Below are positions 2 to 19,166 of a stretch of DNA of 19,166 bases, one piece after another. The translations under genes and the position numbers were made by a program. The stretch is from the NCBI GenBank assembly GCA_964573245.1, contig CAZNJA010000023.1, positions 1 through 19,166 on the forward strand. Direction: 5' to 3'. The first letter of the stretch is position 1. Every line of letters begins with the position of its first letter. The DNA comes from an uncultured bacterium. Lineage in GTDB: Bacteria; CAIJMQ01. The notes under the pieces were generated by a model. That model saw only the letters and a program-made list of their open reading frames with translations. It made no database searches and was not told the DNA's origin.

Positions 2-89
2 GGAGAGGTGGCTGAGCGGCCGAAAGCGCGCGCTTGGAGAGCGTGTATACCGCAAGGTATCCAGGGTTCGAATCCCTGCCTCTCCGCCA
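2..89 (+). tRNA. tRNA-Ser(GGA)
   Basis: Acceptor stem GGAGAGG (2-8)/CCTCTCC (79-85), discriminator G86, encoded CCA 87-89. Anticodon stem CGCGC/GCGTG with loop TT-GGA-GA (anticodon 36-38). Long variable arm ATACC-GCAA-GGTAT; T-arm CAGGG-TTCGAAT-CCCTG. Confidence 0.97.
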
Positions 90-171
90 CTTTTTGCATT
101 GCAAAAAGTGGCGAGACTTCGACATCTCGCCACCAAAGGTGGCGGATGACGAGTCCGCCGCGAGATCTCGC
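85..171. repeat. Chain of interlocking inverted repeats (REP-like palindromes) directly after the tRNA 3' end
   Basis: CGCCACTTTTTGCA (85-98)/TGCAAAAAGTGGCG (100-113) perfect 14 bp; GTGGCGAGA (108-116)/TCTCGCCAC (125-133); CGCCACC (128-134)/GGTGGCG (138-144); GGCGGA (141-146)/TCCGCC (154-159); palindrome GCGAGATCTCGC (160-171). Confidence 0.85.
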
Positions 172-233
172 CTCTACAATTTGCTTTGTAAATTTGAGGG
201 TGGGTCCGGCCCTGCAAACGTGAGATAATAAGT

Positions 234-479
234 ATGCATTATGTTTACATTTTGCTGAATGAATCAAAGACACGAACATATACTGGCGTTACCGACAACA
301 TCGAGAAACGTTTAGCAGAACACAATGCTGGACGAGTAAAGTCTTCACGTCCGTATCGTCCTTATAAAATAATACACAGTGAGTTATTAAAAACATTAAG
401 TGAAGCTCGCCAGAAAGAAAAGTTTTATAAATTCACGATAGGGCGTAGAAGATTAAAGGAGACGCTTTTTAAGTCTTGA
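234..479 (+). CDS. Short stand-alone GIY-YIG nuclease family protein
   Basis: 81 aa with YVYIL...YTGVT.NIEKRL.EHN.G motif and C-terminal A...EK, giving the Y/Y/R/H/E residue set of the minimal GIY-YIG domain. Confidence 0.9.
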
Positions 480-545
480 GTTGCTATCTAAATTTTAAAT
501 AGAAAACTTAGCAAGGAGAACAAAACTTATAGGGTGGCACGAGCA

Positions 546-11210: not shown

Positions 11211-12704
11211 TTAATTAGGGAAAAATTTATTAAGCGCAGATACAACATCTTTTACGCCTATACATTCGATCTTGTCCGCCTTTGTTCCTGTGGCAGATGC
11301 GGATGAAGACAAATTTACAAAAGGTAGTATACACTTTTTAAACCCCAATTTCTCTGCCTCTTTTATTCTTGCTTTAATATTGGACACGCCTCTTACCTCG
11401 CCGGATAAGCCCACTTCGCCCACAAATAGAGTGCCGGCGGGCAGGGGTTTGTTTTTTAAAGAAGAAACAATTGCAAATATTACCGGCAAGTCTATCCCGG
11501 TTTCTTCTATCTTAATGCCTCCCGCCACATTAACGAATAAATCATATTTATGCAGCGGCGCGCCAAAAGTTTTCTCCAGAACGGCCAGCAAAAGAAGCAC
11601 CCTGTTATAATCCACGCCTGCTATTACTCTTCTGGGAAAATTCATTGATGTGGAAGTGGTTACAAGCGCTTGAATTTCTACTAAAAGAGGTCTTGTTCCT
11701 TCAATAGAAGAGGCGATAACGGTTCCGGGGGCGGGCGAAGGATTGCGTGACATAAAAATTTCGGAAGGATTTGGGATTTCTTTTAACCCTTTCTCGGTCA
11801 TTTCAAAAACGCCTATTTCCTGTGTGGAGCCGAATCTGTTTTTAAAAGTTTTTAAAATGCGGAAAGGACCCGTTTTTTCTCCTTCAAAATAAAGGACGGC
11901 ATCTACCATATGCTCTAATACCCTGGGCCCGGCAATTAAACCTTCTTTTGTAACATGGCCTATAAGAAAGAGGGCTTTAGAGCCCTTTTTTGTAAGTTGA
12001 ATTAAATCGGAGGCGCATTCTCTTATTTGTGATACGGAGCCCGGGGAAGAATTAACACCCGGCTTATATGCTGTTTGTATGGAATCTAAAATAATCCAAT
12101 CGGGCGAAGTTTCTTCTATGAATTTTTTTATCCTTTCCAAACTAACTTCACAAAGAATACTTAAATCTGCTTGCCCGCCTGCTTGCTCCGACGCCGCGTC
12201 GGAGCGGGCAGGTTTGTTGGGAGTGGATGAAAATATTTTTAATCTTTCGGCTCGCAGTTTAATTTGAGATAGTGATTCTTCGCCGGAAACATAAAGGACC
12301 TTTTTGCCTTTTTGCGAAGCCATTGCCGCAGCTTGTAAGAGAAGCGTTGACTTGCCGATGCCAGGCTCGCCGCCGATTAGAACAACATCGCCTTCTACTG
12401 TGCCGCCGCCCAAAACCCTGTCTAGTTCCGATATCCCAGTAGAAAATCTTTCCTGCCTTGATGAGCCGTTTCCGGCGAGGCAGGTTTGTTCTTGCTCTTT
12501 CCCGCCTGCTCCCGAAGAATGAGGGCGGGCAGGTATTTGGGAAAGAACGACAGGTTTATTCCCCCATACATGTTTATCTTGAACTTCGACGGGAGTTTCT
12601 TCTAAGAGAGTGTTCCAACTATCGCAGGAAGGACATTTACCCAACCACTTTATAGATGCATAACCGCAGTTTTGGCAAACAAAAGTCGTCTTTGGGTTTA
12701 CCAT
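11211..12704 (-). CDS. radA: DNA repair protein RadA/Sms containing in-frame palindromic insertions
   Basis: C4 zinc finger CQNCG...KCPSC, Walker A GGEPGIGKSTLL, DSIQT, GHVTKEG, KNRFG, EGTRPLLVEIQAL and GEVGLSGE. At 497 aa it is longer than the usual ~455-460 aa. Confidence 0.98.
   Translation of the reverse strand: MVNPKTTFVCQNCGYASIKWLGKCPSCDSWNTLLEETPVEVQDKHVWGNKPVVLSQIPARPHSSGAGGKEQEQTCLAGNGSSRQERFSTGISELDRVLGGGTVEGDVVLIGGEPGIGKSTLLLQAAAMASQKGKKVLYVSGEESLSQIKLRAERLKIFSSTPNKPARSDAASEQAGGQADLSILCEVSLERIKKFIEETSPDWIILDSIQTAYKPGVNSSPGSVSQIRECASDLIQLTKKGSKALFLIGHVTKEGLIAGPRVLEHMVDAVLYFEGEKTGPFRILKTFKNRFGSTQEIGVFEMTEKGLKEIPNPSEIFMSRNPSPAPGTVIASSIEGTRPLLVEIQALVTTSTSMNFPRRVIAGVDYNRVLLLLAVLEKTFGAPLHKYDLFVNVAGGIKIEETGIDLPVIFAIVSSLKNKPLPAGTLFVGEVGLSGEVRGVSNIKARIKEAEKLGFKKCILPFVNLSSSASATGTKADKIECIGVKDVVSALNKFFPN
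11272..11312. repeat. Degenerate palindromic element near the radA 3' end
   Basis: TTGTC (11272-11276)/GACAA (11308-11312) and TCCGC (11275-11279)/GCGGA (11299-11303); encodes LSSSASATGTKADK. Confidence 0.5.
12166..12212. repeat. CCTGC...GCAGG palindromic element in radA
   Basis: CCTGCTTGCTCCGACG (12178-12193)-CCG-CGTCGGAGCGGGCAGG (12197-12212): 16-bp arms with 2 G.T pairs, plus an extra half-site 12166-12177; encodes PARSDAASEQAGGQAD. Confidence 0.85.
12452..12484. repeat. 33-bp CCTGCC...GGCAGG palindromic element in radA
   Basis: CCTGCCT (12452-12458)/AGGCAGG (12478-12484), inner GCCG-TTTC-CGGC (12465-12476); encodes CLAGNGSSRQ. Confidence 0.8.
12501..12533. repeat. 33-bp palindromic element in radA with a second copy in the rpsB leader
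   Basis: CCCGCCTGCTCCCGAAGAATGAGGGCGGGCAGG encodes PARPHSSGAGG; 12499-12532 is 28/34 identical to 18203-18236. Confidence 0.8.
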
Positions 12705-18424: not shown

Positions 18425-19036
18425 TTATTTGTCTAAAACCGTAATAATCGCGAATGTTACAAAATATCCGGCCGCACTTGCCAAAAAAGCCAAAGAAAAC
18501 GGCCATGTGTTTGTATAGTGCAGGATCAAGGTTATTGCCATAGTTGCGATAACAGGTTTTTCAAGGGTTTTGTAAAGAGGTAACTTTATGCTTACTTTAG
18601 TAAGAAAAAATACAGTAAAAATAAACATAATTGCCAGATTTATTACAATAGTTGTGCATAATCCTACTAAACCATAACGGGGAGTGAGATAAAAATTTAA
18701 CGGGATGTACGATATGGTTCCTATTACTAAAGATGAGAAAATGATCCACTTTTTGTTTAGAACTCCAGTTATCCCTATAAGGAAAATATCATAATAAATA
18801 AGGATTATAGCCCAGACTATTATCTGAAAAGGTAAAGTTAGAATTTCTAATGCTTCCTTAGAGAAGAAAAAGAGAATATTTTGCGCCCTAAATGCAACAA
18901 AGGCAACAAGAGGGAACAAGAAGATAGATGTTATCCGCAGATTTTCAAATTGGTTATCTAAAAATGCTTGCCCTGAATCGTCCGCCATTGATTCGGTGGC
19001 GGACTGCTTCAAGGATTGATTTTCTTTGTCCGACAT
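18425..19036 (-). CDS. Membrane protein resembling the C-terminal half of a polysaccharide flippase (Polysacc_synt_C-like)
   Basis: 203 aa from the ATG at 19036, 4 nt after the gpsA stop; LNFYLTPRYGLVG resembles the LN..LIP.YG..GA flippase motif; about 6 TM. Confidence 0.65.
   Translation of the reverse strand: MSDKENQSLKQSATESMADDSGQAFLDNQFENLRITSIFLFPLVAFVAFRAQNILFFFSKEALEILTLPFQIIVWAIILIYYDIFLIGITGVLNKKWIIFSSLVIGTISYIPLNFYLTPRYGLVGLCTTIVINLAIMFIFTVFFLTKVSIKLPLYKTLEKPVIATMAITLILHYTNTWPFSLAFLASAAGYFVTFAIITVLDK
18980..19004. repeat. GTCCGCCA...TGGCGGAC palindromic element in-frame in the flippase-like ORF
   Basis: Perfect 8-bp arms 18980-18987/18997-19004 with a 9-nt loop; lies in QSATESMADD. 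Confidence 0.7.
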
Positions 19037-19040
19037 AAAG

Positions 19041-19166
19041 TTATTTCTGGATGTGAGATTCTTCTTTTGGCGTTCTTCCCATAAGTTCGCCCACCTCATC
19101 GAAGGGTTTTTTGCCTTCCCACAGAATCTCATAGACGGCGCGCGCTATCGGCATTTCCACGCCGAA
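19041..19166 (-). CDS. gpsA: NAD(P)H-dependent glycerol-3-phosphate dehydrogenase, 3' end (partial, runs off the window)
   Basis: Own translation of the minus strand from 19166: FGVEMPIARAVYEILWEGKKPFDEVGELMGRTPKEESHIQK*, matching the GpsA C-terminal VEMPI..AVY.IL..G......LM.R..K.E pattern. Not in the ORF track. Confidence 0.88.
   Translation of the reverse strand, partial: FGVEMPIARAVYEILWEGKKPFDEVGELMGRTPKEESHIQK

Follow-up and report, generated by a model that had tools for sequence, protein, structure and literature searches.

As far as we know, HUH enzymes are the only ones for which it has been worked out how short palindromic repeats are spread. Among the described systems that resemble the locus analysed here, the Ssn system of Neisseria meningitidis centres on SsnA, a GIY-YIG protein of 94 aa whose binding to its own hairpin repeat, the NTS, and cleavage next to it take place in single-stranded DNA only (Chenal et al. 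2025, PMC11893778); in the available text of that paper the authors themselves compare the system with IS200/IS605 and REP elements, and tRNA is not mentioned. In the REPIN/RAYT system, as described in the available text of PMC3337134, two inverted imperfect palindromes with a variable yet paired inner sequence occur in hundreds of copies, also without a gene, and the linked nuclease gene encodes an HUH tyrosine transposase. The available text of PMC2330249 describes T4 SegB, a phage-borne GIY-YIG gene that is found at tRNA genes and is present or absent between relatives, with occupied and empty alleles at the homologous site; the enzyme has a C-terminal DNA-binding motif, cuts duplex DNA, and is described there with no hairpin partner. 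UPF0213 and Slx1, which are nearest to the protein of our locus in sequence and fold, differ from it as housekeeping or repair proteins. Within the open-access literature covered, no description of tRNA-linked GIY-YIG/hairpin cassettes was found.

The locus lies at the start of a stretch of 19,166 nucleotides, the window, which is an entire contig (C23) of a genome of 1.46 Mb and 38% GC (G000). Judged from its sequence, it would work like Ssn/NTS and looks like a REPIN, but it is neither. The best overall explanation, to which we assign a probability of roughly 0.62, is that the locus represents one copy of a small selfish module, consisting of a GIY-YIG nuclease and a partner DNA hairpin doublet. 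Taken by itself, the selfish pairing of nuclease and hairpin is quite probable, and that this nuclease family drives the spread of gene-less doublets is a nearly even bet, with the odds slightly against it; that the nuclease cuts or moves the hairpin is a prediction. The features concerned are:

2-89, + strand: tRNA-Ser(GGA) (ARAGORN, Rfam); its last bases, TCCGCCA (83-89), are also the first arm of the hairpin doublet
83-116, + strand: hairpin A, a bulged monomer (TCCGCC-stem-loop-GGCGAGA) with a perfect 14-bp stem, 85-98/100-113
115-155, + strand: hairpin B, the inverted partner of A (sequence and folds; canonical form in the leader alignment)
154-159, + strand: TCCGCC, direct repeat of the tRNA 3' end (sequence; position conserved in the leader alignment)
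160-211, + strand: second, decayed unit with a GCGAGATCTCGCC node, an imperfect hairpin and a GGGTCCGGCC end (sequence and fold)
234-479, + strand: 81-aa single-domain GIY-YIG nuclease of a tRNA-Ser-linked clade (PF01541, tree, dN/dS, model)
481-514, no strand: TTGCTA/TAGCAA pair, present but outside the element (1 of 59 loci; chance 9-15%)
546-1883, + strand: NCS2/xanthine-uracil permease, the host neighbour on the right side of the occupied site; it follows the same tRNA without the cassette in congener G003

The sequence-only reading, made from the letters of the window before any database was searched, had claimed an intact GIY-YIG gene of 81 aa, and the claim held: the ORF at 234-479 matches PF01541 (E 1e-14) over residues 1-68 and carries no other domain, and among 63 aligned relatives Y5, G18, R26 and H30 are invariant and Y16, N31 and E62 nearly so. 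The predicted structure is a GIY-YIG model with a pLDDT of 91; the nearest solved sequences and folds are UPF0213 (1ZG2, 1YWL) and Slx1, with no Foldseek match under E 0.001. NCBIfam yielded no match above cut-off, and the Rfam scan yielded nothing past cut-off except two tRNAs. Contigs from three other sequencing runs span parts of the leader and the gene without a single differing letter, and the two are therefore not an assembly artefact. The dN/dS ratio is about 0.07, which implies that the gene is functional, and pS (0.62-0.8) places the synonymous sites near saturation against every relative (48 genes), from which it follows that the gene transfers are old and that no recent jump was caught.

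With Ssn/NTS the locus shares a single-domain GIY-YIG protein of less than 100 aa (81 aa here, about 95 aa and cd10448 for Ssn) that adjoins a directional, imperfect DNA hairpin which is also found alone. Nevertheless, the protein belongs to another clade, scoring 40 bits on an Ssn-like profile as compared to 140-168 bits for the 14 members of that profile (proteins that group with four adjoining the NTS motif of PMC11893778 and that form a clade of their own with support of 100/98, SsnA itself not being included). It also does without the Ssn-like C-terminal W-rich helix, and the NTS/SRM sequence (GTCATTCCCGCG...GGAATC type) is not found in the flanks in the window, whereas an SRM-like motif lies beside 9 of the 14 Ssn-like rows. 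Finally, the hairpin of the window is an abutting doublet that is tied to tRNA-Ser and has a low copy number, and the activity is in this case predicted from the sequence. We consider the protein most likely to be a hairpin-specific ssDNA nuclease like SsnA.

A chain of overlapping inverted repeats that begins inside the tRNA end, as had been noticed from the letters, was recovered by a repeat search (85-98/100-113, 108-116/125-133, 83-94/135-146, 120-130/160-170 and 107-121/161-175). The palindrome module does not end at 171, where it had been taken to end: according to both sequence and DNA fold, a second, decayed unit spans 160-211. When folded as DNA, 83-211 reaches -37.1 kcal/mol (z -7.2), a value that 0 of 200 shuffles equalled. 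In the simplest parse of this segment, a bulged hairpin (TCCGCC-loop-GGCGAGA) and its abutting reverse complement form an inverted doublet, which is followed by the decayed second unit; the doublet has the consensus TCCGCC-loop-GGCGAGAYCTCGCC-loop-GGCGGR. In the window, hairpin B is lengthened by a nested layer, GACT-T-CG / CG-AGTC, outside CATC-T-CGCCACC / GGTGGCG-GATG. Tandem units occur elsewhere too, with several nodes per leader in L011, L014, L024, L039, L046, L055 and L058. The stem of hairpin A has at least 8 pairs in 38 of the 41 clade leaders that could be parsed. There is no terminator-like site or U-tract in 1-600 and the structure is conserved well past one stem, so that a terminator or processing stem as the sole explanation was rejected.

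The likeness to REPINs lies in the two inverted imperfect palindromes, the inner sequence that varies and yet remains paired, the gene-less copies and the linked nuclease gene. Compared with the REPINs of the available text of PMC3337134, the doublet has a spacer of zero, few copies instead of hundreds and a tRNA gene as its target, its gene matches PF01541 only and not an HUH transposase, and genes of this type usually have the repeat on one side only. The inverted pair TTGCTA (481-486)/TAGCAA (509-514), which had been put forward as a companion of the gene on its downstream side, is present, but as the right end of the element it was rejected: it lies behind 1 of the 59 close loci, namely that of the window itself, and pairs of this kind are at chance level (6-bp inverted pairs in 41 of 464 window tiles of 40 nt, and in 14.8% of shuffles). 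Downstream of 53 clade genes, loose patterns found a node-like motif in 14 and a tRNA-3'-like piece in 7, and because such motifs are rare we regard the element as having no defined right end.

Relatives of the gene were collected by a genome-contig scan, in which the best 80 of 113 relatives were taken; 58 close ones (63-81%) and the window make up 59 loci. A tRNA-Ser gene lies on the same strand, at most 450 nt upstream, in 49 of these 59 (drawn from the best 80 of the 113), its anticodon being GCT in 16, GGA in 16, CGA in 9 and TGA in 8. A tree was built from 157 GIY-YIG-like ORFs, of which 124 were retained after length, score and duplicate filters (88 columns; the bootstrap had not settled), and it places the window protein in a clade of 53 rows with support of 100/99. 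It had been proposed as a check that homologues should be enriched for tRNA 3' ends and for palindromes, and they are: 45 of the 53 clade rows have tRNA-Ser upstream versus 2 of the 71 other short GIY-YIG rows, and the TCCGCC...GGCGAG hairpin adjoins the gene in 47 of 53 versus 4 of 71. These last four comprise the sister rows L191 and L201, one upstream paralogue with a clade leader in its flank, and one NTS-like locus. Many of the more distant relatives adjoin other tRNAs (Val, Asp, Gln, Lys, Glu, Pro, Phe, Ala, Leu). The type of hairpin tracks the nuclease lineage, i.e. the doublet goes with the clade and its sisters, NTS-like hairpins with Ssn-like rows (9 of 14), and other trailers with other paralogues.

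The window genome itself holds four GIY-YIG paralogues, two of which adjoin tRNAs. One of these genes (C14:13159-13600) lies directly 3' of tRNA-Val(GAC), with tRNA-Val-like copies on both sides in which the anticodon arm is swapped for a CCGACGTWACGTCGG-type palindrome whose 14-mers occur in 15 copies genome-wide. Another (C1:9880-10400) has a copy of the 5' half of tRNA-Gln(CTG) on one side and a complete copy on the other, with a trailer, ATGAACC...GGTTCAT, that is also present behind tRNA-Ser(GGA) in G002. A further one (C27:11400-11800) lies away from tRNAs, between inverted repeats of the CCCCGCACCTT/AAGGTGCGGGG type, and a UPF0213-like paralogue (C1:26141-26344) has neither a tRNA nor a hairpin adjoining it. 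In congener G002, locus L368 (contig C37) consists of tRNA-Ser(CGA), then a different hairpin trailer that ends in ATCCGCC, and then a GIY-YIG gene of another clade; the equivalent site in the window genome (C39) has no gene. In the divergent clade member L149 and the sisters L191 and L201, a partial copy of tRNA-Ser carries the doublet in its anticodon loop, not at the 3' end, and an intact tRNA flanks the gene on its other side.

The doublet also occurs without the gene. In the window genome the same leader is found behind tRNA-Ser(GCT) with no nuclease gene, the start of a leader is found behind tRNA-Tyr at a contig end, and two strict doublets (C22, C55) lie away from tRNAs; the bulged monomer has 45 strand-counted matches, as compared to 4 and 5 for reversed and swapped controls and 0-1 for shuffles. 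In G002, a leader without the gene follows tRNA-Ser(TGA). Around the doublet in six partial tRNA copies of other genomes (Ser, Val, Met, Gly and two Pro), the flanks continue the neighbouring tRNA sequence with nothing duplicated, most clearly for Val, Met, Gly and one Pro, where 22-24 of 28 positions match before the copy ends. The doublet thus occurs alone as a precise insertion without target duplication. It is found in both orientations, in intergenic DNA as well as in dead copies of tRNAs, where it lies within the D-arm, anticodon or T-loop, and at one recurring site doublets are nested in another repeat family (L340, L346, L347, L349, L367, L370).

For the joint distribution of gene and doublet, 201 genomes around one Omnitrophota holder were surveyed, with clade membership set at E<=1e-20; 8 of the 201 carry the gene. 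The doublet was found in 15 of the 201 (control 0), i.e. in 5 of the 8 gene-bearing genomes and in 10 of the 193 others, an enrichment for which Fisher values overstate the significance, as kin are non-independent and G041 was picked as the holder. Copies away from the gene are present in 4 of the 8 gene-bearing genomes. Hairpin A anchored at tRNA-Ser is found in 4 of 8 versus 1 of 193, where the pattern matched 28 genomes, only matches overlapping an ARAGORN tRNA were kept and CGGAGA and GACGAG variants are missed (the match in G116 overlaps a tRNA and has no stem). Copy numbers are low, with 2 strict doublets in the window genome and, over both strands, no more than 13 matches to the pattern per genome among the 201. 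A shorter marker, the 12-mer GGCGAGAYCTCR, matched 106 of the 201 genomes, but only about 2 of 27 further loci inspected were hairpins, and for this reason the full doublet pattern was used instead. The correlation that the sequence-only reading had asked for is therefore present as an enrichment, yet it is not a strict one, since 10 of the 15 doublet-bearing genomes are without the clade, as is G002, at the thresholds used (E<=1e-20 in the survey). The hairpin is thus linked to the nuclease lineage, although the majority of genomes with a doublet are without the clade.

These clade-less genomes are what an alternative would predict in which another enzyme (RAYT or an IS200/IS605 TnpA) moves the hairpins and the GIY-YIG gene rides along with a captured copy, serving in Ssn-like restriction of incoming ssDNA. 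The doublets nested inside another repeat family at one recurring site would fit it as well, as would the lowered transformation that SsnA causes in Neisseria according to the available text of PMC11893778. We nevertheless consider this alternative unlikely, as the type of hairpin follows the nuclease lineage. Among the genomes that are rich in doublets but without the clade, sister rows with an adjoining hairpin are present in G166 and G196, and G231, the richest in doublets, has no hairpin adjoining its short GIY-YIG genes; other GIY-YIG clades or HUH enzymes could act as movers of the doublet.

Returning to the selfish module of nuclease and hairpin, the presence of the cassette varies between close relatives. 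An empty site between tRNA-Ser and NCS2, which had been named as something to look for, was found in two congeners. In G003, about 150 nt of other hairpins lie between the same tRNA (97.7% identical to that at 2-89) and NCS2, with no GIY-YIG gene, and in G002 a third kind of trailer and an NCS2 remnant are present, with no GIY-YIG gene between tRNA and NCS2. A contig of run X4 joins 89 to 556; it stems from a diverged relative, with 8 differences in the tRNA. A search of 40 relatives revealed no clade member, the best other matches being 40-44% identical. At the same time, the nuclease is 75-81% identical to that of the window in five distant genomes in which RpsB is only 46-54% identical. These genomes are labelled Omnitrophota, Planctomycetia, Deltaproteobacteria, Verrucomicrobiota and Ratteibacteria, where the Planctomycetia-labelled genome falls in the same phylum sample as the Omnitrophota one; the record names 'uncultured Planctomycetia' of L005 and L010 were accordingly set aside as proof of cross-phylum spread, because G236 and G042 are in the phylum sample of the Omnitrophota genome. 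Congeners thus differ by gain and loss of the cassette, which also has a scattered distribution among distant lineages. Points that weigh against the selfish module are the doublet-bearing genomes without the clade, the low copy numbers, the want of a defined right end, the synonymous saturation that hides any recent jump, and the failure of a single-protein query to find clade members, and with them a vehicle, in viral contigs.

Such a pattern of occupied and empty alleles at a tRNA gene is shared with T4 SegB, and a free-standing homing endonuclease of that type would cut empty duplex tRNA-Ser genes and be copied by break repair, with the hairpins as scars or as protection. The strict specificity for tRNA-Ser over four anticodons and the empty alleles (G003, G002, the X4 contig) are in line with homing, and SegB itself recognises a T-arm motif of the tRNA and homes (PMC2330249, available text). 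Yet the window protein, with its 81 aa, has no C-terminal DNA-binding part where SegB has NUMOD3, the downstream neighbours vary so widely that two-sided homology is missing between lineages, the restored tRNA sequence means that the target would survive the insertion, and the doublets that were inserted alone would be left unexplained. We hold homing to be distinctly unlikely.

An alignment of 25 leaders shows a common architecture: tRNA...CTC TCCGCCA, hairpin, TGGCG A GATC T CGCC, hairpin, GGCG GATC CGCCA, start codon. The distance from the end of the leader to the start codon is about 15 nt (median) and the orientation is fixed. Loop and stem letters vary freely whereas the pairing is kept, with 92% of cells pairing and 14 of 21 pairs changing on both sides; this covariation exceeds all 500 shuffles and every slid control, but it is overstated because the structure was derived from the same sequences and the sequences are related. 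In 41 of 42 parsed leaders the four nucleotides of the linker are complementary to the four that follow hairpin B (shuffle mean 17.4, maximum 28), in one of three forms: GATC/GATC, GACC/GGTC or AGTC/GACT. The inner pairs of hairpin A in 39 leaders comprise 290 Watson-Crick, 2 G-T, 7 A-C and 9 other combinations, i.e. there is no wobble of the RNA type, and this profile would be more in keeping with a DNA hairpin than with selection for an RNA helix.

It is on this point that the idea of a tRNA 3' trailer switch has to be judged, in which the hairpins act as RNA and control tRNA processing or the translation of a domesticated repair or stress nuclease. TGGCG could pair with the CGCCA of the tRNA or with the repeat behind hairpin B, the orientation and the spacing to the start codon are fixed, the protein is under strong purifying selection, and its nearest solved folds are the UPF0213 and Slx1 repair nucleases (albeit with no Foldseek match under E 0.001). 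Besides the near absence of G-T pairs in the stems and of a terminator-like U-tract, however, the doublet is present in both orientations within dead tRNA copies and intergenic DNA, the gene is present in only 8 of the 201 sampled genomes, and some copies are broken (L042, L056-L058, L150), all of which makes a role as RNA improbable.

The 3' ends of tRNA-Ser genes are common att sites, and leftovers of prophages or integrative elements that used them would account for an integrase neighbouring 2 of 55 loci and for the doublet in 7 viral stretches, but the neighbour survey has largely refuted this very remote alternative: the downstream ORFs are mixed host genes (53 of 55 are not integrases, 8 are dnaX), the site in the window is closed by the syntenic host gene NCS2, and a single-protein query found no clade member in viral contigs.

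At tRNA-Ser genes the doublet is positioned at CTC^TCCGCCA; behind it comes a repeat of the old end, and about 15 nt after that the gene. As the doublet itself begins with TCCGCC(A), the tRNA regains its end, and an insertion at this position by a doublet with such a start would explain why serine tRNAs are chosen. We infer that TCCGCC at 154-159 is the displaced original tRNA end, and likewise the order of the insertion events at the tRNA of the window. Leaders behind tRNA-Ala and tRNA-Tyr (L122, L139 and C84:1-40 of the window genome) have arms that have become CCACCA/TGGTG, matching the ends of those tRNAs, and these variants fit the same kind of insertion.

The chemistry of GIY-YIG enzymes is hydrolysis of DNA, and they are not known to join strands, so that host repair would have to do the insertion. 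In the mechanism that we propose, the gene would be transcribed by read-through from the tRNA promoter, and the protein would bind the hairpin when this is single-stranded, for instance at a replication fork, in incoming DNA or in a heavily transcribed tRNA gene. It would then nick beside the hairpin, as SsnA does with the NTS hairpin, upon which host repair, through annealing of strands or a template switch primed by the nick, may insert the doublet, or the doublet plus gene, into tRNA genes. The first arm, being the end of a serine tRNA, would supply both homology and harmlessness and thereby fix the target. In its most general form, namely that a GIY-YIG protein of 80 aa alone mobilises a class of hairpin elements, each lineage having its own doublet and using an ssDNA nick that host repair pastes into tRNA genes while the tRNA stays working, the proposal is tentative, and we hold it to be somewhat less probable than its opposite.

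In any case, the locus offers a testable pair: an 81-aa nuclease and a defined bulged hairpin, for which the point of insertion is exactly defined and empty alleles exist. Should cleavage or movement of the hairpin by this enzyme be confirmed, the principle known from Ssn would apply to a second lineage of GIY-YIG proteins, a class of parasites of tRNA genes would have been overlooked until now, and new small, sequence-specific ssDNA nucleases would become available. If a GIY-YIG protein mobilises the element on its own, this would be a transposon-like system without transposase chemistry, as well as a source of many hairpin-specific ssDNA nucleases.

Further palindromes in the window contain the same core word as the leader:

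11275-11297, no strand: degenerate N11 mini-palindrome within the radA 3' end; G001-G003 have decayed counterparts and G004 a gap of 18 nt
18981-19003, no strand: member of the N11 family within the 5' part of an ORF for a membrane protein; G001 and G002 have it as well, G004 does not

The hairpins near 18980 and 11275 are real, as the sequence-only reading had it, but their assignment to the GIY-YIG gene did not stand. They belong to a YCCGCC-N11-GGCGGR family with 32 strict copies in the window genome (reversed-pattern control 0) and a fixed 11-nt middle, unlike the leader. The family is common, with 11, 31 and 13 copies, in three congeners where the clade was not found, it adjoins only 1 of the 53 clade genes, and it is near 1 tRNA. 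With the leader it has the core word in common, and 19 of the 45 bulged monomers likewise have middles of 10-11 nt. The two hairpins thus represent a related family, and nothing ties them to the GIY-YIG gene.

The radA gene (window 11211-12704, - strand) holds three in-frame palindromic insertions of 33, 33 and 39 nt, which are of the CCTGCC...GGCAGG/GGCGGG type and are absent from the orthologues in G001 and G002. The listed ORF of 235 aa at 18425-19166 begins inside the tail of the upstream gene, and alignment with congeners suggests that its true start is the ATG directly before the N11 hairpin. Other abundant short repeats in the window genome are ACCCCGTTAGAGAT (41), GATTACACAGATTA (12) and heptamer runs of the ATTTTTGATATTTA type, and the N11 palindromes are often nested in these repeats.
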